Origin: a virus
Taxonomy: Duplodnaviria > Heunggongvirae > Uroviricota > Caudoviricetes
IMG/VR virus record: IMGVR_UViG_3300045988_013119
Span: 1-26,322 of that record
Strand: one strand, 5' to 3'
Length of the DNA: 26,322 bases
The notes below the pieces were generated by a model. The model was not told the DNA's origin. It was given only the letters and a program-made list of their open reading frames with translations, and searched no databases. The translations under genes and the position numbers were made by a program. Each line of letters begins with the position of its first letter. Position 1 is the first letter of the stretch. Below are positions 1 through 22,579 of the stretch, piece by piece.

Positions 1-41
1 ACTGCATATCGTCGGCAGCGTCAGATGTGTATAAGAGACAG
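1..41. other. Synthetic Illumina Nextera adapter: 8-nt i5 index ACTGCATA followed by read-1 adapter and Tn5 mosaic end
   Basis: Positions 9-41 read TCGTCGGCAGCGTCAGATGTGTATAAGAGACAG, which I recognise as the Nextera read-1 adapter ending in the 19-bp Tn5 mosaic end. The 8 nt before it match the index I recall as N506/S506. Confidence 0.95.
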
Positions 42-337: not shown

Positions 338-355
338 AGGCCGCAAGAGCGGCCT
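338..355. terminator. Hairpin AGGCCGC-AAGA-GCGGCCT between convergent ORFs, candidate bidirectional terminator
   Basis: A 7-bp GC-rich stem with a 4-nt loop sits between the stop of 74-331 (+) and the stop of 354-1082 (-). T/A-rich tracts flank it on both sides. Confidence 0.45.
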
Positions 356-1082
356 ATCGTTTCGCTTTGTGCTCATCCCAGCACGTTTTGCACCATGCCA
401 TTAAGCCGTCCGCATTTTGATTATTAGGGTAAAAGCTGGTTCGTTTTCTGCGGACATTACAAATTGGGCACCACTTCATATGGCGTGTATTCTTTGGGCC
501 ATCGAGACACCTTGCACACCACTTAGTCAATCCATCTGGATTTTTTGACGATTTCCTGAATTTTTCATATGGAAGGTTTATTCTGCATCGCAAGCACTGC
601 TTGCTACCACTTGAAACTCTGTTAGCTGATTCTTCTTTTGGCGGCGATGCAGAAGGTATTCTTGCTGGCTCTGATACTGCCTGAGGTGCTTTTTTAGATG
701 ACTGAGACGATATGTCATCACCAGGGAATCTTCCATGATATGCCGGACGCGTTGACACTCCAGGTGGAAGCTCAGCTGTAAACGGCTTTGGCTGAATCAG
801 TTGCCTCTCTTTTGCTAACTCCTGCTGTTTATAATATGTCTGGATTACCGCACTATCATAAGCAGGAGGTGCGGAAATATTAGGCGCATTACCTCCAGTT
901 TTTTGAAACTGAGTAGAGGTGTGTTCTATCACCTGTGTACGATTAATCGTTATCTCCCCATCTTCGGTCTTTATCGTTTTGTTATGATTAACGACCGTAC
1001 GATCAGAGATCTTAGTCTTGTTCTGGTTGATAACGTAAATAATCACCGCAACCACACCAACAACTATCCAGAAAACTTCCAT
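354..1082 (-). CDS. Membrane-anchored protein with a C-terminal tandem Cys-rich (zinc-ribbon-like) domain; function unknown
   Basis: 242-aa ORF with GAGG 7 nt upstream of the ATG. Residues 4-18 (FWIVVGVVAVIIYVI) form a hydrophobic helix followed by K/R residues, then a Ser/Pro/Gln-rich linker. The C-terminus carries repeated CxxC ... DGL..WCxxC units (CLRC...PDGLTKWCARC; WCPIC...ADGLMAWCKTC). Confidence 0.8.
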   Translation of the reverse strand: MEVFWIVVGVVAVIIYVINQNKTKISDRTVVNHNKTIKTEDGEITINRTQVIEHTSTQFQKTGGNAPNISAPPAYDSAVIQTYYKQQELAKERQLIQPKPFTAELPPGVSTRPAYHGRFPGDDISSQSSKKAPQAVSEPARIPSASPPKEESANRVSSGSKQCLRCRINLPYEKFRKSSKNPDGLTKWCARCLDGPKNTRHMKWCPICNVRRKRTSFYPNNQNADGLMAWCKTCWDEHKAKR

Positions 1083-1101: not shown

Positions 1102-1118
1102 ATTACCTTAAAGGTAAT
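1102..1118. promoter_or_regulatory. Operator-like palindrome ATTACCTTAAAGGTAAT (copy A of ATTACCTT-N3-GGTAA)
   Basis: Perfect 17-bp palindrome 20 bp upstream of the start codon of the 354-1082 gene, in a divergent intergenic region. The same half-sites recur at 1195-1211 and 19342-19358. Confidence 0.45.
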
Positions 1119-1194
1119 ATCTTGCTTTCAGGTGATCAAGCGTTAAACGCAATCAACCAAATACGGTTGATTTTAATATTTCTTCGCGTTTATC

Positions 1195-1211
1195 ATTACC
1201 TTTGCGGTAAA
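1195..1211. promoter_or_regulatory. Operator-like inverted repeat ATTACCTTTGCGGTAAA (copy B)
   Basis: Shares ATTACCTT-N3-GGTAA with copies A and C and lies 93 bp from copy A in the same intergenic region. A TTTACA hexamer follows at 1212-1217. Confidence 0.4.
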
Positions 1212-1476
1212 TTTACATCGCACTCCTCTTGTGCCATAGTAATCGGGCACTGGATTTTGCCAGTGCCGGGATTGGCGTCCCGGGTTACTACAGAGGCACA
1301 TATGCCGCATAAGCGGTTTTTTTATGTGTAAAGCGCACCTATTCTATGGTGGGCTGTGTGGGGGCACCGAAAGGTGCGCCGGGTCCTTTGTAGCCGGTTA
1401 CGCCAACCCTGCACAGTTCACCACCAACCGATTGGCGTCGGTAGTGGTGATTAACCTAACTACAAAGGTGATCACT

Positions 1477-2163
1477 ATGACTGCTAACGTAACCCCATCT
1501 GTTTTTCATTTTGAATCAGAGGCAACCATTCGAGCCATTGTTATTGATGGAAATCCTTGGTTTGTTGCCAAAGACGTTATTAAAGCTCTTCAACTGACAA
1601 ACCCCACTATGTCAATAAAATCTCTTGATGATGATGAAAGGGCTAAATTTAACTTAGGCCGTCAAGGCGAAACCAATATTATCAACGAGTCAGGCCTCTA
1701 CACACTGATCCTCCGCTGCCGCGATGCGGTGACACCAGGCACTATCCCCTACCGCTTTCGTAAATGGGTTACAGGTGAGGTTCTTCCTCAGATCCGCCGC
1801 ACCGGAAGTTACATTAAAAACTCGCTCCCGCAGGAAGAACGCATAAAGATGGTTGCCGACCAGGTAGCCAACGCCACGGCGTCAGCAGTAATGCAGGCGA
1901 TGAAGATAGAGAACAAAACCTACAGTGCCCCGCTGAAGCCCGGCTACCGCAGCCTGATTCACTCGCCGTCTGGTGTTCTCGGCCTGACGGAGAACTCACT
2001 GCTGATGAATCTGCTGAACCAGTTACAGGAAGACGGGCACGACGTATCGGGCGCGGCGGCAGAGCTGACCACCATGTTCTGCTACATCGTCGGTGTGAGC
2101 AAATGCCTGCGTGATATCCAGACGCACGCGGAGTACATCAACGACAAAGCAGGATTCTTCTGA
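1477..2163 (+). CDS. Phage antirepressor with Bro-N/KilA-N-like N-terminal domain
   Basis: ATG at 1477 with AAAGGTG 7 nt upstream; the ORF track's longer start at 1324 lacks an RBS and runs through structured leader. The N-terminal region (FHFESEATIRAIVIDGNPWFVAKDVIKALQL...) is typical of the Bro-N antirepressor family as I recall it. Confidence 0.8.
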   Translation: MTANVTPSVFHFESEATIRAIVIDGNPWFVAKDVIKALQLTNPTMSIKSLDDDERAKFNLGRQGETNIINESGLYTLILRCRDAVTPGTIPYRFRKWVTGEVLPQIRRTGSYIKNSLPQEERIKMVADQVANATASAVMQAMKIENKTYSAPLKPGYRSLIHSPSGVLGLTENSLLMNLLNQLQEDGHDVSGAAAELTTMFCYIVGVSKCLRDIQTHAEYINDKAGFF

Positions 2164-2311
2164 CAGAACGGCGGCACATGGATGTGCCTTTAAATAATTC
2201 TGTACAGATTGCAGACTGTTGGTGAATAGCGTACTATTACCTCAAGGGTAAACGGATTGGTTTCATTTTTATTAATCCGTGTAATGAACTTATGAGATAT
2301 GAGGTAATGTC

Positions 2312-2485
2312 ATGCGAAACGAAAAATTGCAGATGCGTAGAGCGCAAGCTGCCGCAAGACGTTCTTTCAATGGAAGCGTAGAGTGCGTAAAAGTTACTAT
2401 GACAAAAGATCACGCAAGTCGCGTATCCCGCGCTTTCTTTGATTCTCGTAACAATAAGGAAAATTATGAGTTCGTCTGCGTCGCA
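2312..2485 (+). CDS. Small basic ORF (57 aa) overlapping the start of the YafO-like gene; candidate partner/antitoxin, unverified
   Basis: ATG at 2312 with GAGG at 2301-2304 (7-nt spacing). The ORF ends 20 nt inside the downstream gene, the usual toxin-antitoxin overlap geometry. It is below the size cutoff of the supplied ORF track. I recognise no homology. Confidence 0.3.
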
Positions 2486-3011
2486 GAATGATAAAAATCA
2501 AATTGTCAGATATAAGGGTCGAGTATTGCATACGCAAAATTTCTCGGCCCTTTGTGCATCTGATCTTGAGCTGAAGAAAGTATCTGATGCCTTTACCCAG
2601 TATTGGAAAACGGGATACCATCCATCTCTTGGTAAAGATGCTGCATTTGCTCGTCCGACAGAAATGCTTAAACTAAATGTCAGGCATACTCATGTCGATA
2701 ACCAAGACTATATTCCAGAAGATAGTGATAAAAAACACACTGGTAAAAAATCATCTTGGGATGCATGGAAAAATATAGCGTCTGTGCAAGTAAAATGCAT
2801 ACCAACAAGTGATTGCTTTTTAGTTTATTCGGTAAATCACAATCGTGATGCGCTGGTTATGTTTTTTGTTGACGCAGATGCCCACAACATAACTGAGCAA
2901 GAAGAGTTTAAAGAGGCAGCAATCACTATCAGTTATCAATTCTTTGAGAAAACAAAAACAGAACCAATGCCTTTAGAAGAAGATCTTTTTTCTGATAAAT
3001 GGAAGGAATAA
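2466..3011 (+). CDS. YafO-toxin-like domain protein (181 aa) encoded on a moron-like cargo locus
   Basis: ATG at 2466 with AAGGA upstream; the track's 2439 start lacks an RBS. Motifs GKDAAF...VRHTHVD...FLVYSVNHNRDALVMFFV...ADAH parallel the E. coli YafO motifs as I recall them (GRDALY...VAHIHL...HLVYCQG...). The gene looks AT-rich by eye, has its own terminator and is transcribed opposite to the tail genes. Confidence 0.7.
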   Translation: MSSSASQNDKNQIVRYKGRVLHTQNFSALCASDLELKKVSDAFTQYWKTGYHPSLGKDAAFARPTEMLKLNVRHTHVDNQDYIPEDSDKKHTGKKSSWDAWKNIASVQVKCIPTSDCFLVYSVNHNRDALVMFFVDADAHNITEQEEFKEAAITISYQFFEKTKTEPMPLEEDLFSDKWKE

Positions 3012-3266: not shown

Positions 3267-5741
3267 TTATTGCGGAGTGACATCCTGTGGTCGCCACCAG
3301 TATGTCTGGTTAAACTCTTTCTTCGAACGTTGCTCCATTTTACGCAAATAGCCTGGTGAAAAATACTCCTGCATCTGGTTAAAGATCATGTGATCGAGAG
3401 CCGCCTTTAAGTACCAGAGATTCGCACCTGGCATCAAACCTTTCCCCAGCTTCACCAGATCACCACCAGTCTGCTCACTCTTCCCTTCCACAGCATTTAA
3501 CGGTATGCCCTGAGCAATCTTCACTACGTCATCAACCAGACCAGCTACCGGGCCAAGCATCGACGCCAGCGCGCCGCTTCCGTACCTAGTGTGATCTGAC
3601 AATAAAAAGTCACCGTAAAGGCCAAGACCACCACCTTTCAGTAGAGCACCAAGCCAAAATTTAGCAGCATCTTCTCCTGTCATCTCGCGAGGATTACGAC
3701 CAGACGCAAGGTCGTTAAGTTGCTGCGACAAAGCGCCAAGAATGGTCGTACTGGCAATAAACGTCGCAATATATGCCGCACGCCCACCAGCAGACGGCAT
3801 ACCCATAGCGCGTGACCAGTGACGCATAACTACCGAGATAGGGAACGATTTAAACAGGAAAACACTTCTCGTTAATTCACCTTTCCATGTTCCACGCTGA
3901 ATACCAGAACCGGTTATCAGTTGCTCACGTGCTCCCGGTGTAATAACAGCCATATCAACTTCTTCAGTTACGGCACCGAGAAGTTTACGCATTGCCTCAA
4001 ATTTCACGCGTTCAGGCTCACCAAGATGTTTAACTGCTGAATCAGGGATACGCATAATGCTTTCCGGTGTCAGCATCGTATTATTGCCGTTCCCCCAGTC
4101 CTCCTGTTGCGCCAGCTTCCATACGCTCCAGTCTGTTTCAGTAATCCCTTTGCTTTTCAGGATACGAAAATCAGAGTCATCGAGGCTACGAAGGTCTGGT
4201 GTCCGTGACACTACCTCTCCCAGGCTTCCCATCATTGTTACGCCATAGGCGCGCTTGTGCGCATCTGACCATGCTGTAAGCCCACTGGCACGCATTACCG
4301 CCGTTGCCGCCCAACGAGACACAGACGGCCCCATATTATCCATTGCCCAGCGGTTAACACTGCCAAGTAGAGATTCCATCGCCAGACCAGCGCGGCGCGC
4401 CCGCGCAAGCTCAGTACGGTTCGTTGGGTCCATAGCTTCAAGCTGGTTGCGGAATAACTGGTTCATTGGAAGGTTGGTCACCTTCGCAGACAGATACATG
4501 GTTCCAAGATCAGAGAACGATGACAGCAACGCGGATCCTAGTCGGCTGGCAACCAGCCAGTTGCGGATATTGTCAGACCAGCGCGCGATGTGCGGATTCG
4601 CTACAGGCTGTGTCTTTCCGGAAATAAAGTTGTACAGATTCTCTGTGTTGTTCGCCAGCCGCTCGACTTTACCGGTTTTACTCGGGTTAGCTGTTGCCGT
4701 TTCTGCCTTCACCTGATCAAGAAGAGAGCGGAAAACATGATCGGGGTTTGGGCCATATGTTTCCACCAGTGCAATATCTTTACTGATACCTTCCAGGTGA
4801 CCGACCATGATTTCCCATAGAGAGCGATCGCCATAAAGTTGCTGATATTGCAGATAGGAATCTGCATCTTTGAAATGTATCTGTCGTGATGCATTACCCC
4901 GGTTAGCACGTGCGCCGGAAATTCGCATTCCGGTATCAGTAAGCTTATTCAGCCCACCAGTAGCGATCGTGTTATAAGCCTCTCCAAGAAATGCAGACAA
5001 CTCGGCATCGTTCATCAGTTGTCCATCGACTCGGGTATAATATTTGCGATCCAGCTTACCTATAACATCGCTAACCCACTTATCCTTTGATACCGCCCCA
5101 ACCTTTTCCATAGAATGATGTTGAGGGATCCCCCAGTTTTCGAGATAGCCAATGTCCCCACCAGCATCATTAAACCGGCGGCGCAGTAGCTCTGTCACTT
5201 CTCTCCACGCCTTAGCACCTTTTCTTGCTTTAGCATTGCCAGTATTTTGCCCTCGCATTTCATATACCAGGTCACGCACGCCAGCTTCATCTTCAAACAG
5301 GCCAAAAAAGCGAGGATCAACTGCTTCAAATGCCTCCTGCAATTGACTCAATGCATAATCACGAGTGGCTTTTGTTCTGGATTCAACAGAGAGGAAATTC
5401 GATTTACCGTCTGCATTAAAAGCAATAGTACGGTTAAGAGCGCCAAGTTTCCCATCAGCCCCTTGATAGCTATTGATAAATTTATCCAATCTCTGACGTG
5501 CGGCTATAGTGAGAGCCACACGACGTTTCTTTAATGCCGCTTCTCGCTGTAATTCTTCAGATGCCAATTGTGCTGCACGATACAACCGTTCTGATTCGGA
5601 AAGTTGTCGCCACGACATCGGATCATCACGAGCAATGGAGCGCATATTTCGATAAATGCGGTCTTCAATGTTCTGTATTTCTCGCGCCGTTAACGTGCGC
5701 TGCGCCGCCTGCTGGACCGCTTGTATACATTCCTGTCTCAT
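3267..5741 (-). CDS. Large internal virion (ejection-type) protein, 824 aa
   Basis: Last large ORF of the structural operon, with GAGG RBS. The C-terminal third contains hydrophobic Gly/Ala-rich segments typical of podovirus ejection proteins. Position matches the T7 gp15/gp16 slot. Confidence 0.8.
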   Translation of the reverse strand: MRQECIQAVQQAAQRTLTAREIQNIEDRIYRNMRSIARDDPMSWRQLSESERLYRAAQLASEELQREAALKKRRVALTIAARQRLDKFINSYQGADGKLGALNRTIAFNADGKSNFLSVESRTKATRDYALSQLQEAFEAVDPRFFGLFEDEAGVRDLVYEMRGQNTGNAKARKGAKAWREVTELLRRRFNDAGGDIGYLENWGIPQHHSMEKVGAVSKDKWVSDVIGKLDRKYYTRVDGQLMNDAELSAFLGEAYNTIATGGLNKLTDTGMRISGARANRGNASRQIHFKDADSYLQYQQLYGDRSLWEIMVGHLEGISKDIALVETYGPNPDHVFRSLLDQVKAETATANPSKTGKVERLANNTENLYNFISGKTQPVANPHIARWSDNIRNWLVASRLGSALLSSFSDLGTMYLSAKVTNLPMNQLFRNQLEAMDPTNRTELARARRAGLAMESLLGSVNRWAMDNMGPSVSRWAATAVMRASGLTAWSDAHKRAYGVTMMGSLGEVVSRTPDLRSLDDSDFRILKSKGITETDWSVWKLAQQEDWGNGNNTMLTPESIMRIPDSAVKHLGEPERVKFEAMRKLLGAVTEEVDMAVITPGAREQLITGSGIQRGTWKGELTRSVFLFKSFPISVVMRHWSRAMGMPSAGGRAAYIATFIASTTILGALSQQLNDLASGRNPREMTGEDAAKFWLGALLKGGGLGLYGDFLLSDHTRYGSGALASMLGPVAGLVDDVVKIAQGIPLNAVEGKSEQTGGDLVKLGKGLMPGANLWYLKAALDHMIFNQMQEYFSPGYLRKMEQRSKKEFNQTYWWRPQDVTPQ

Positions 5742-5746
5742 TTAAT

Positions 5747-7549
5747 TTAACCTCTCAAGAAACACGCCACAGCAACATCAAACAGGCTGGAATCCTGTAT
5801 TGCCTGCTCACTTTCCCTGTTCGCTTCATCCAGTACTTCACGCGCACTGCGCGATTGTGGATTACCATCATCATCCAGCACGGTGATTATCATGTCCGGA
5901 GATTCAAGCAGCGAGTCTTCAGCTATACGCAGATCAATATCTCCTGCCGGATCTGCCATCATTTTTTGTTCTGTCTGTTGCAATATCTTACCGGGCTCAA
6001 AAGGAGCTACTTCGTCTGGCGTCCTGACCTCTGCTGTTTTATAGAATGAAACAGCCTGAGCATTAAGTTCACTTTCAGCCTGCTGTCTCCGTGCCAGTTC
6101 TGCTCGAGCTTCAAAAAACTGACCGCCAGGCTCATGCGGTGCCAACGCGTTACGGGAAAATTCCAGGCGTTCTTGTGCCTGCCGGATTCGTTGGTCAATA
6201 TCGCGAATTCTGGCCTGTTTATCTGATCGAGCACGAGACAAAGCTTTACCGCTACCAGTTGGCTCTTCTGCAAGAATTTGTGCGCGCTGTTCAGTGAGAT
6301 TGTCGATAATTCGTTGGCTATTAGCGATTTCAGACTGGTAAACCTGTCTATCGCCACGCGACAAAAGCTGCGCGGCCTGTTCTTCAAGCAACCGATTTTC
6401 TATAGCGCGCGCCGTTTTTCCATCATCTACAGATGACAGAGCCTCATTAACTGCCTGAGAAAGCAGACTCTTGTGCCCAGGGATTTCACTGAAAGATGCA
6501 GACTCAACAATGCTGGCAACGTCTACAGGTCTCCCCTGGCTAACATCAGACATGGCTTTTCGCAGAGCCTGAATGTGAGAATTACGCGAAAGCACGTTGA
6601 TCGGCACGCCAGGAGCAATATCAATTTCAGCATGATGAGCGGCATTCGCCGCCAGTGCAGCATCGATATCAACTGGTGAAAAATTTGGTGCGCTTGTAGA
6701 CTCGCCGCGAGAGTTAATAAATCTGCCGACACCACCAAACGCCACCCCAAGAACAGCATCAATAGCAATTGCCTGTCGATCCAACACATCATACTGGTTA
6801 GCCATTTCGCTATAGCCACCATCACGAAGCGTTTTTGCAGTAAGCCCACGCTGTGCCATACCGAACGCAATATTTGTACCTGCGGCATAGGCAATATCTG
6901 GCGTTGCACGTACTGCTGTTGCTGCGGCGCGTCGCACTGAACTCTCACCCGTCCGCGCAAGCTGAGCCGCCACACCTTCCGCCAGCGCACCACCAGCACG
7001 TAACCCGAGGCTCATAGGGATCAGTGTTCCGGCACCAGCAGTAATGCCCTGCACTAATCCCGCTTCCTGCGCCGTCCTGAAATCAACACCCTGTGCTATC
7101 AGCCGTTCAAACTCAGAAAAACCCTGTAGCGAAGTTACCGCCGCTGCACCTCCGACAGGACCACCGAGCGTTGTACCGACAACAGCCTGCCCGCCCATAT
7201 CGAACAACCCATAAAGAACCTGCCCGGCGGTTCCGGTTGTCGCGGCATCAGGCGTCAGCCGCTTAACCTGCTGCTCTGCTAGTTTTCTCTGCTCGGCAAT
7301 GTATGAAACTGAAGTATCATTGAGCGAGGTGTTTTCGTTAATAAACTGAGCAATCGGGGATACGATTTTATCCATCCCAGCCCATAGCAACTGATCTGGC
7401 TTTGCCACCAGCCCGGAGTACAAACCAGACAATGCCGCTCCTACAGCATTGTCGAAAAAACCAACATCGCTGTTAAAGCCCGCTGGATTTGATGCTGCTT
7501 CGTCAAGTTGCTGATTCTGGTTTACTGGATTAAGGCCAAAGTAACTCAT
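5747..7549 (-). CDS. Internal virion (ejection-type) protein, 600 aa, Gly/Ala-rich
   Basis: Stop overlaps the start of the adjacent upstream gene. The middle region is strongly Gly/Ala-rich and the C-terminus is predicted coiled-coil. Confidence 0.8.
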   Translation of the reverse strand: MSYFGLNPVNQNQQLDEAASNPAGFNSDVGFFDNAVGAALSGLYSGLVAKPDQLLWAGMDKIVSPIAQFINENTSLNDTSVSYIAEQRKLAEQQVKRLTPDAATTGTAGQVLYGLFDMGGQAVVGTTLGGPVGGAAAVTSLQGFSEFERLIAQGVDFRTAQEAGLVQGITAGAGTLIPMSLGLRAGGALAEGVAAQLARTGESSVRRAAATAVRATPDIAYAAGTNIAFGMAQRGLTAKTLRDGGYSEMANQYDVLDRQAIAIDAVLGVAFGGVGRFINSRGESTSAPNFSPVDIDAALAANAAHHAEIDIAPGVPINVLSRNSHIQALRKAMSDVSQGRPVDVASIVESASFSEIPGHKSLLSQAVNEALSSVDDGKTARAIENRLLEEQAAQLLSRGDRQVYQSEIANSQRIIDNLTEQRAQILAEEPTGSGKALSRARSDKQARIRDIDQRIRQAQERLEFSRNALAPHEPGGQFFEARAELARRQQAESELNAQAVSFYKTAEVRTPDEVAPFEPGKILQQTEQKMMADPAGDIDLRIAEDSLLESPDMIITVLDDDGNPQSRSAREVLDEANRESEQAIQDSSLFDVAVACFLRG

Positions 7550-19341: not shown

Positions 19342-19358
19342 ATTACCTTTCAGGTAAC
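19342..19358. promoter_or_regulatory. Operator-like inverted repeat ATTACCTTTCAGGTAAC (copy C)
   Basis: Shares ATTACCTT-N3-GGTAA with copies A and B. A perfect TTGACA hexamer lies at 19321-19326, and the 10-mer AATTATTACC is also present at 19276-19285. Confidence 0.4.
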
Positions 19359-19679: not shown

Positions 19680-19756
19680 GTGGCATTAGCTCAGTTGGAC
19701 AGAGCAACCGCCTTCTAAGCGGTTGGTCGCAGGTTCGAATCCTGCATGCCACGCCA
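19680..19756 (+). tRNA. tRNA-Arg (anticodon UCU), phage-encoded, argU-like core with a divergent acceptor stem
   Basis: Cloverleaf read by hand: acceptor GTGGCAT/ATGCCAC, D-arm GCTC-AGTTGGACA-GAGC, anticodon arm ACCGC-CTTCTAA-GCGGT (anticodon TCT), variable TGGTC, T-arm GCAGG-TTCGAAT-CCTGC, discriminator G, encoded CCA. Confidence 0.85.
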
Positions 19757-21943: not shown

Positions 21944-22536
21944 TGATTACCATCCTGACGTTCTTTGAGTCGCTTCCTGGCTGCTGCTATGCGATCAGCA
22001 ATTGTCACATTCACATTAACATCCAGACGTTCTTTGAATGCGTTGACATCAACATGCTTACCAATCAGCTCAAGGTTCTTCACCTTGTCAGGCCATTTAA
22101 TTTTTTTGAGGATTGTCTCTATTGAATCCTCGTTCATGTTCATGATGGTCGATGACAGATCAAAGCCACTAAGCGTAGTGCGCCAGATTTTCGGCCACTC
22201 ACGGATTGGTTTAAGGCTCCCATCGTCGTTGAGGATGTCGATCACGTCCATCTGGTCGATCTCCACCAGGCGCATGAGAACGTAATCAGCACTGACACGC
22301 ATTCGTTTGTTGCGCTCCTCCATCAACTCGGCAATCCGTTTCTGAATGCGTTCATCGCGCATCATGACACTGGCTTTAACTGCCGCTGTATTTGGGGAGA
22401 ATCCTGCGTTAATCGCAGCCTGAGTCTGGTTTTCAGGCGTTTTGATGTATGACTGGCAATAAGCCTCCTGCATTGCTGTGAGCGGCTTAAATTGCGTTGA
22501 TTTGCGTTTATAGGTTTTAGGTTCAGCAGGCATCAT
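21940..22536 (-). CDS. Terminase small subunit, 198 aa
   Basis: Start moved to the ATGATG at 22536; the track's TTG at 22614 would run through the terminator-like hairpin. The N-terminus (KPLTAMQEAYCQSYIKTPENQTQAAINAGFSPNTA) has the typical small-terminase pattern. Confidence 0.8.
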   Translation of the reverse strand: MMPAEPKTYKRKSTQFKPLTAMQEAYCQSYIKTPENQTQAAINAGFSPNTAAVKASVMMRDERIQKRIAELMEERNKRMRVSADYVLMRLVEIDQMDVIDILNDDGSLKPIREWPKIWRTTLSGFDLSSTIMNMNEDSIETILKKIKWPDKVKNLELIGKHVDVNAFKERLDVNVNVTIADRIAAARKRLKERQDGNQ

Positions 22537-22579
22537 AACCACCGTGGTAATTGTTACCGTTGTGGTAATAGTACCATGC

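Follow-up and report, generated by a model that had tools for sequence, protein, structure and literature searches.

An IsrK and C4 RNA module in the leader of a Bro-N antirepressor gene of a Uetakevirus-type Escherichia coli prophage

In the immI regions of phages P1 and P7, an operator, one or more promoters, site a1 in a hairpin loop, site b1, a terminator-like hairpin, the C4 RNA, site a2 and site b2 over the ribosome-binding site follow one another on a single strand; in P1 the annotated order is C1 operator, two promoters, a1, b1, c4, a2 and b2, and then icd and ant. C4 matures from the operon leader as an RNA of about 77 nt, whose 5' end is reportedly generated by RNase P (Hartmann et al., 1995). 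Competition of a1/b1 with a2/b2 was proposed by Citron and Schuster (1990), as summarised in Weinberg et al. (2010), who described a two-hairpin 'c4-a1b1' motif.

In Salmonella Gifsy-1, IsrK supplied in trans raises translation of anrP more than 100-fold (139-fold), and STnc1160, an RNA of ~80 nt, is processed from the read-through transcript (PMC4825925). Compensatory mutations demonstrated the pairs G28-C162 and G31-C159 (Hershko-Shalev et al., PMC4825925). The authors explain activation by the upstream orf45 and translational coupling, and they compare the system with the CI RNA of P4, with P1 and C4 not mentioned (PMC4825925). Binding of IsrK to Hfq and activation of a downstream antirepressor-like gene in trans have been shown for Gifsy-1 only.

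Three other systems bear on the locus studied here. In the APSE phages of Hamiltonella defensa, the same tandem of isrK and C4 lies directly upstream of a Bro-N gene and is both annotated and published. The CI RNA of satellite phage P4, with seqA and seqC, is processed from the leader of its own operon and has complementary sites upstream and downstream. It acts by premature transcription termination, not by blocking a ribosome-binding site. Antirepressor synthesis in P22 is likewise held down by an RNA, sar, that pairs at the ant ribosome-binding site; this RNA comes from the opposite strand and is classed in another Rfam family.

We analysed a stretch of 26,322 nt (hereafter the window, meaning the whole stretch) from a Uetakevirus-type podovirus prophage, in contrast to the P1-like plasmid prophage, and compared the leader of its Bro-N gene with these systems.

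Two Rfam families ahead of the Bro-N gene

When the whole window was scanned against Rfam at the curated thresholds, three matches were obtained, two of which, an IsrK small RNA followed by a C4 antisense RNA, fill the leader on the plus strand (Table 1). The hairpin-rich leader is a copy of the known two-RNA control module, IsrK and then C4, as in phage P1 and Salmonella Gifsy-1. This module is real and functional-looking, yet ordinary: both RNAs are curated families found by a routine Rfam scan, already known and simply unannotated in this type of E. coli prophage. RefSeq and GenBank records of such prophages list no RNA genes at the leader, and the GenBank record of phage vB_EcoP_ZX5 (ZX5) annotates a stretch of C4 as a 37-aa 'ash family protein'. 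Our analysis flags this annotation gap; as the RNA families and their logic are established, it adds little for wider biology.

Table 1. Features of the Bro-N gene leader and flanking sequences, in window coordinates.
Feature	Position	Strand	Description
Operator-like palindrome TTACCTTAAAGGTAA	1103-1117		Extended as ATTACCTT-A-AAGGTAAT at 1102-1118; 21 nt upstream of the ATG (1082) of the divergent gene
Operator-like palindrome TTACCTTTGCGGTAA	1196-1210		Adjoins the -35 element of the IsrK/C4/ant promoter
Sigma-70 promoter-like site	1212-1240	+	TTTACA, 17-nt spacer, CATAGT, upstream TG (extended -10)
IsrK hairpin 1	1246-1267	+	Loop ATTTTG at 1254-1259; covaries in 41 homologues
IsrK sRNA	1247-1323	+	RF01394, 56.7 bits (gathering score 50), E = 7e-10, model positions 1-77 of 77
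Site a1, GATTGGCGT	1270-1278	+	Loop of IsrK hairpin 2 and adjoining bases; complement of C4 a'
Site b1, CTACAGAGG	1288-1296	+	Unpaired linker of IsrK; complement of C4 b'
IsrK intrinsic terminator	1304-1322	+	5-bp G+C-rich stem, loop ATAA, seven T
C4 antisense RNA	1342-1428	+	RF01695, 79.5 bits (gathering score 45), E = 2.5e-14, model positions 1-87 of 87
b', CCTTTGTAG	1385-1393	+	Loop of C4 stem P3, unpaired in the fold
a', ACGCCAACC	1400-1408	+	Single-stranded junction between C4 stem P3 and the 3' strand of stem P1
Site a2, GATTGGCGTC	1430-1439	+	ant leader, a few nt after C4; GATTGGCGT at 1430-1438; exact repeat of 1270-1279
Site b2, CTACAAAGG	1460-1468	+	ant leader; overlaps the Shine-Dalgarno sequence AAGGTGA of ant
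ant, Bro-N protein, putative antirepressor	1477-2163	+	228 aa; Pfam Bro-N, 5e-20; same CDS called by RefSeq

A first-pass annotation had described the region as a GC-rich gap of about 360 bp, dense in hairpins, and had suggested that it might contain a cis-acting leader element or a small regulatory RNA for post-transcriptional control of the antirepressor. This suggestion is borne out by the scores of IsrK and C4 above the Rfam gathering values and by structural and intermolecular covariation in related phages (see below). The dimensions needed correction: the gap measures 394 bp (1083-1476), from the ATG of the divergent gene (1082, minus strand) to that of the Bro-N gene (1477), and over its whole length it is not GC-rich (48.3%, compared to 49.7% for the window), a description that holds for its presumed transcribed part only (53.9% in 1247-1476), with 61% in C4 and 36.6% in the promoter part.

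Repeat search and folding recovered all three hairpins that had been picked out, within 1 nt of where they had been placed, and each could be assigned. The first is IsrK hairpin 1, whose arms (1246-1253, GGCACTGG, and 1260-1267, CCAGTGCC) form 8 bp with 100% complementarity around a loop that has 6 nt and not the 5 originally read. The terminator of IsrK accounts for the terminator-like one (GCCGC-ATAA-GCGGT, 1304-1317; seven T, 1316-1322), and the GNRA hairpin, GCACC-GAAA-GGTGC at 1364-1377 with a 5-bp stem and a GAAA loop, belongs to C4 as its stem P2. The earlier description had overlooked the 17-bp outer stem of C4 as well as the repeated, mutually complementary sites a and b. Compared with 200 dinucleotide shuffles, folding gave z = -2.1 for 1247-1323, -3.6 for 1342-1428 and -4.8 for 1247-1500, and none of the 200 shuffles of the last segment folded equally well.

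The predicted fold of IsrK has the traits of its family, namely two 5' hairpins, a single-stranded linker and a Rho-independent terminator. Its score is below those of relatives (76.7 bits in TL-2011b and 77.9 in ZX5). The architecture of the c4-a1b1 motif (RF03163) is also present, with two hairpins, a1 in the second loop and b1 just 3' of the second hairpin, and IsrK of the window is the equivalent of this motif of P1. The upstream element nevertheless scores as isrK in the window and as c4-a1b1 in P1: the RF03163 match in the window, 26.9 bits at 1234-1286, does not reach the gathering score of 46.7, unlike those of P1 (51.0 bits) and Gifsy-1 (48.1 bits), a shortfall that coincides with, and is due to, an inverted hairpin-1 loop in the window.

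C4 folds with a minimum free energy of -45.2 kcal/mol into an outer stem, P1, of 17 bp (1347-1363 / 1407-1423) that encloses P2 (1364-1368 / 1373-1377, with the GAAA loop) and P3 (1378-1382 / 1394-1398). A long outer stem around two hairpins, the first with a stable tetraloop, characterises the C4 family, and the tetraloop rule is that of Weinberg et al. (2010). In C4 of phage P1, too, b' is the P3 loop and a' the junction following P3, and this RNA scores 68.8 bits compared to 79.5 for the window; the 3' strand of the outer stem is followed by ACCACC in the window and by GCCACC in phage P1. Alignment to the annotated c4 of phage P1 predicts a mature C4 of ~78 nt (~1348-1425). Among 56 homologues, 16 of the 27 consensus pairs of C4 show compensatory double changes, and the consensus structure is the same as that of the window. 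Structural conservation in related phages, on which the regulatory proposal had been staked beforehand, is thus what we find: the C4 stems and IsrK hairpin 1 both covary.

The strand of the two RNAs bears on a reading in which an antisense RNA of the P22 sar type, transcribed from the minus strand, would cross the ant ribosome-binding site. The first-pass annotation had drawn the P22 analogy, and in TL-2011b sar is matched marginally at another place in the genome (44.8 bits versus 43; L001 6215-6282). Yet both Rfam matches in the leader are on the plus strand, the same as ant and within its own leader, as in P1/P7 immI, the Rfam scan gave no match to sar (RF00262) in the window, and no minus-strand promoter-like site was found in 1000-1600. 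We therefore set the P22 analogy aside and regard a sar-type RNA here as scarcely credible.

Complementary sites and their covariation

The sites of C4 and their targets were compared as loop-restricted duplexes, since unrestricted RNAduplex runs with whole segments open the P3 stem and separate cognate from non-cognate pairs weakly. On this basis, the helix of b' with b2 has 9 bp (-12.6 kcal/mol) and that with b1 also 9 bp, one of them G-U (-12.5 kcal/mol), while a' forms 10 bp with one bulge with a1 (-16.6 kcal/mol) and, through 1400-1406, 7 bp with 1432-1438 of a2 (-10.3 kcal/mol). Across the 26-kb window, exact matches to the a and b sites are confined to IsrK and the ant leader. For APSE, by comparison, a second distant target in the DNA polymerase gene has been proposed by its authors, and no second target is present in this window; the APSE sequences are distant from ours (69% over 51% of the query) and the Bro-N proteins are ~25% identical.

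The Bro-N protein itself is 82% identical to ORF4 of ZX5, a phage classified in genus Uetakevirus, which carries both IsrK and C4 as judged with Rfam. Overexpression of ORF4 cut lysogeny ~1000-fold and the protein promotes lytic growth, as reported in the ZX5 paper, which does not mention RNA control. The Bro-N protein of the window has no detectable similarity to Ant of P1, an ANT/KilAC domain protein. The phages with names nearest to the window are TL-2011b, ZX5 and O157 typing phage 10, and 133 complete E. coli genomes contain the leader at a coverage of at least 80%, with parts of it in 948 of 5426 genomes.

We collected 79 IMG/VR loci that encode a close Bro-N relative, which gave 57 distinct leaders. 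These fall into four specificity types, in each of which the C4 segment has changed in step with its two targets. In type W, that of the window, b' CCTTTGTAG faces CTACAGAGG at b1 and CTACAAAGG at b2; in type T (TL-2011b) b' is CCTTTTAG with CTAAAAGG at both targets; in type K (L043) b' is CCACTTAG with CTAAGTGG at both targets; and in type A (L024) it is a' that changes, to GTGCAAAC, with ATTTGCAC at both targets. Hence b', b1 and b2 covary across types W, T and K, and a', a1 and a2 covary in L024. As in P1/P7, the a and b sequences are specificity determinants that vary between related phages.

A scan with a C4 pattern provided a wider set of 120 loci with 36 distinct b' loops. The pattern fixes a' as GCCAACCC, so that this set tests covariation of the b sites only. 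An exact Watson-Crick complement of at least 7 nt to b' was found downstream in 33 of 36 cases and upstream in 23 of 36, compared to about 4% when b' loops were paired with the wrong locus; this control allowed Watson-Crick pairs only, the background being too high to inform when G-U pairs were admitted. Each of the 36 representative units contains, between b1 and C4, 5-8 consecutive T, and in most of them a start codon follows the end of b2 by about 7-13 nt. The ORFs downstream in this set have either 180-230 or 62-81 aa, and these two sizes indicate that direct control and control through a leader ORF both occur in the family. In the window there is no leader ORF like icd of P1, and it is the antirepressor gene's own Shine-Dalgarno sequence that b2 covers.

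Gifsy-1 resembles the window in having IsrK with a leaky terminator, a C4 family RNA, a2, b2 and an antirepressor-like gene. Its IsrK (34316-34240) is followed by a C4 family RNA (34214-34131; 69 bits), then by a2 (CGATTGGCGTC), b2 (ATCACCGGAGG) and the anrP ATG, and the C4 family member is the STnc1160 region. The a1, a' and a2 sequences are the same as in the window (ATTGGCGT / ACGCCAA), whereas b specificity differs, and AnrP is an ORF6N protein whereas that of the window is a Bro-N protein. Counted from the start of Gifsy-1 IsrK, G28 and G31 fall in a1 and C159 and C162 in a', and the compensatory mutations in Gifsy-1 therefore demonstrate pairing of a1 with a'. By the same count, orf45 starts (A107) with the AUG found at the 5' end of the outer stem of C4. 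In Gifsy-1 the 45 codons of orf45 run through C4 and its stop overlaps the anrP ATG, whereas in the window the equivalent frame, from ATG 1346, closes after 15 codons at a TAG within b', and so the published Gifsy-1 mechanism cannot apply unchanged.

The same frames bear on the reading that the leader encodes a small protein, be it a repressor of the Arc/Mnt type, a leader peptide like orf45 or icd, or an N-terminal extension of Ant from ATG 1324, and that its hairpins are incidental. ORFs of 69 aa (1122-1331) and 32 aa (1356-1454) do exist in the leader, as does an open frame from ATG 1324 into ant; orf45 of Gifsy-1 is translated and needed for full activation (PMC4825925), and the 'ash family protein' of the ZX5 record is annotated at the same place. 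However, no Pfam or NCBIfam match was obtained for any small ORF, the 'ash family protein' and Gifsy-1 orf45 among them, and indels of 1 nt in b1, b' and b2 shift the reading frames between close relatives, the set of ORFs being a different one in TL-2011b. Besides the early stop in the frame of ATG 1346, ATG 1324 comes directly after the T run and has no Shine-Dalgarno sequence, and substitutions keep base pairing, not codons. The leader had been judged from the outset to lack a convincing ORF, and it does, which leaves the Arc/Mnt-type ORF put forward at the same time unsupported; we consider a small-protein function very improbable.

Control of the antirepressor gene

We consider it very likely that the region is an RNA immunity module of the P1 immI type in front of a Bro-N antirepressor gene, in which C4 blocks the ant ribosome-binding site and IsrK titrates C4. 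The steps can be proposed from P1/P7 and Gifsy-1. Transcription would start near G1247, from the sigma-70 promoter beside the operator-like palindrome at 1196-1210, and most transcripts would end at a weak terminator to yield a 77-nt IsrK. That terminator is probably leaky, read-through having been shown for IsrK of Gifsy-1 (PMC4825925), and the read-through transcripts would contain C4 and the ant leader. C4 would be excised from this leader, presumably with a 5' end cut by RNase P as in P1/P7, and would pair with the leader, b' of its P3 loop with b2 and a' of its junction with a2. As b2 overlaps the ant Shine-Dalgarno sequence, ribosomes would be excluded, Ant would not be made and the prophage repressor would stay active. 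IsrK, with a1 and b1, would be a target mimic that, when abundant, frees the ant ribosome-binding site. Its copies of the target sites and additional complementarity in the linker would let it bind C4 much more stably than the leader does, the duplex of C4 with IsrK being predicted at -34.5 kcal/mol. The module would explain how the antirepressor is kept silent in a widespread type of E. coli prophage and how RNA pairings set immunity specificity.

Start site and promoter assignment are consistent with spacing: the promoter-like site, which is conserved in relatives, ends 7 nt before position 1 of the IsrK model, the same distance as in Gifsy-1, whose IsrK has its +1 7 nt past TATATT. Counted from this +1, A107, G28 and further published positions of Gifsy-1 fall on the bases expected. 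The prophage repressor probably controls the promoter. Palindromes of the form TTACC-N5-GGTAA are strongly enriched and intergenic, with 6 in the window against 0.37 expected (none of 100 shuffles reached 6) and 14 in the TL-2011b genome against 0.97 expected; the spacing variant TTACC-N6-GGTAA does not occur. Two of the TL-2011b sites are in its main immunity region, flanked by an HTH repressor-like gene on one side and the divergent neighbour of that gene on the other. The palindrome at 1196-1210 is nearly invariant among the 57 distinct related leaders, and its position matches that of C1 operator Oc4 (Op51), annotated at the c4 promoters of P1. The protein that binds these sites in the window would accordingly be a putative repressor, an identity suggested by this parallel, and the homologue of TL-2011b 5306-5890 is the candidate. 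No LexA box (CTG-N10-CAG) was seen by eye near the promoter, the hairpin-1 sequence CTGGATTTTGCCAG having the wrong spacing.

Control could also be exerted on transcription, as in P4, with C4 pairing with a1/b1 (and a2/b2) on nascent RNA and so causing termination at the IsrK terminator or downstream, the ant ribosome-binding site not being the main target. The P4 layout is alike, a processed RNA between upstream and downstream complementary sites as here, and translational repression by C4 of phage P1 is reportedly coupled to Rho-dependent termination (Biere et al., 1992). Stem P1 of C4 sometimes overlaps terminator hairpins (Weinberg et al., 2010), and in Gifsy-1, whose authors drew the parallel to P4 CI themselves, IsrK in trans raised a transcriptional fusion 8-fold (PMC4825925). 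This increase is nonetheless far below the 139-fold effect on translation in the same system (PMC4825925), and a translational target is what the placing of b2 points to: here it overlaps the Shine-Dalgarno sequence, and in most of the 36 units the start codon follows shortly after it. We regard termination as the main mode of control as unlikely; it is compatible with translational control and may act in addition.

Two observations touch on translational repression by C4. The ant leader alone can fold into a hairpin that covers the Shine-Dalgarno sequence and the AUG, and some repression could for this reason be independent of C4; as a conserved sequestering element this hairpin was left out of the model, being much weaker in TL-2011b. 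In Gifsy-1, constitutive STnc1160 left the toxicity of IsrK unrelieved, which fits poorly with a simple repressor role of C4 (PMC4825925).

The isrK and c4-a1b1 models match the same place in Gifsy-1, so that IsrK and a1b1 would be one element under two names. A broader proposal, which we consider evenly poised, is that both are a terminated target mimic sponging C4 from its own read-through, that orf45/STnc1160 of Gifsy-1 is C4 and its activation anti-antisense, and that the module is a portable three-site RNA 'barcode', with dozens of a/b specificities, set before unrelated antirepressor-like genes (ANT/KilAC, ORF6N, Bro-N), to which Uetakevirus-type prophages add P1-like dispersed repressor operators. 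If IsrK is the a1b1 decoy, the P1 and Gifsy-1 literatures, so far treated as separate, would be united, still a modest advance; this link between IsrK and P1 c4 and a natural IsrK variant with an inverted loop are the modest gains of the analysis.

The inverted hairpin-1 loop of IsrK

The IsrK consensus has a conserved hairpin-1 loop, GCAAAAUC, a trait and not a formal criterion of the family, which is replaced in the window by its exact inverse, AUUUUG. At the DNA level, reverse complementation of ATTTTG gives exactly CAAAAT, the loop of the closest relatives and of the Rfam consensus, and the minus strand of hairpin 1 of the window matches the isrK consensus GCACUGGCAAAAUCCAGUGCC exactly, the inversion being so clean because the arms of hairpin 1 form a perfect palindrome. 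The ATTTTG loop has no counterpart among the other sequences in the alignment of IsrK homologues, and another class of homologues has TTATAAAGC in this place. The inversion costs ~20 bits in the isrK score, with the family score still above threshold. As it removes a strongly conserved loop sequence, IsrK of the window may be impaired, and this copy would be a natural mutant for testing the role of the loop. Leader L033 differs from the window by the loop inversion and a single substitution only. Identical copies with the inverted loop are present in two complete genomes and in IMG/VR contigs, which indicates that the inverted loop is a real allele and not an assembly error.

Dispersed operator-like palindromes and the genes beside them

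The palindrome TTACC-N5-GGTAA was strongly enriched both in the window (6 sites vs 0.37 expected) and in the sequence of the related phage TL-2011b (L085; 14 sites vs 0.97 expected). When site positions were compared with ORFs or annotated CDSs, the majority appeared to be intergenic; two TL-2011b sites lie within the HTH repressor/divergent gene region, and further sites occur immediately upstream of the small terminase gene. The palindromes look like a candidate dispersed operator set for one repressor, resembling the dispersed C1 operators of P1.

Features in the window and in related sequences
Feature	Sequence	Position	Strand
Nextera adapter match	window	9-41	
Divergent 242-aa gene	window	354-1082	minus
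TTACC-N5-GGTAA	window	1103-1117	
TTACC-N5-GGTAA	window	1196-1210	
IsrK hairpin 1 loop	window	1254-1259	
Possible ant leader hairpin	window	1439-1485	
TTACC-N5-GGTAA	window	2237-2251	
59-aa ORF	window	2312-2491	
YafO-family toxin gene	window	2466-3011	
TTACC-N5-GGTAA	window	19343-19357	
tRNA-Arg(TCT) gene	window	19680-19756	
TTACC-N5-GGTAA	window	22536-22550	
TTACC-N5-GGTAA	window	22554-22568	
C4 antisense RNA	Gifsy-1 (L084)	34131-34214	minus
C4 RNA	ZX5 (L206)	1358-1443	
37-aa 'ash family protein' CDS	ZX5 (L206)	1372-1485	
Marginal P22 sar RNA match	TL-2011b (L001)	6215-6282	

Downstream of ant, a 59-aa ORF overlaps the gene that follows it, which encodes a YafO-family toxin (Pfam YafO_toxin, 1e-5; RefSeq call, type II toxin), and the third of the window palindromes stands before the two. 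They may form a putative toxin-antitoxin pair under prophage repressor control. On the other side of the leader, the product of the divergent gene has an N-terminus that looks hydrophobic by eye, and its C-terminal part is rich in Cys and matches Stc1 weakly, below threshold; the TL-2011b equivalent of this gene is annotated as a misc_feature only. The prophage also carries a tRNA-Arg(TCT) gene with an operator-like palindrome ~320 nt upstream, and Gifsy-1 likewise has a tRNA-Arg, close to its own isrK locus.

IsrK loop inversion and C4 RNAs in related phages

The hairpin 1 loop of IsrK reads ATTTTG, the exact reverse complement of the conserved loop CAAAAT, and is a clean loop inversion inside a perfect palindromic stem; a few identical copies of this inverted-loop form were present among public genomes. 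In the Salmonella prophage Gifsy-1, the published 'orf45'/STnc1160 is a member of the C4 antisense RNA family (69 bits), and the start codon of orf45 is the AUG that sits at the C4 outer stem's 5' end, a connection absent from the Gifsy-1 paper. The C4 RNA of the related phage vB_EcoP_ZX5 is overlapped by a CDS annotated as 'ash family protein', whose 37-aa product was without match to any Pfam or NCBIfam model and which is probably a mis-annotation of the C4 RNA gene. TL-2011b additionally showed a marginal P22 sar RNA match (44.8 bits, threshold 43) ~2 kb beyond its ant gene, with no above-threshold counterpart in the window.

Leader boundary, ant hairpin and contig end

Upstream of window position ~1190, just ahead of the operator-like site, there is sharp divergence in many of the related leaders. 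This position is a mosaic boundary, and the exchangeable unit extends from the operator through ant. Folded alone, the ant leader gave a possible hairpin in which the SD and AUG are paired with 1441-1457 (z = -3.1); its TL-2011b equivalent was much weaker. At the window start lies the Nextera transposase adapter sequence TCGTCGGCAGCGTCAGATGTGTATAAGAGACAG, so that this end of the contig is library sequence left untrimmed rather than phage DNA.
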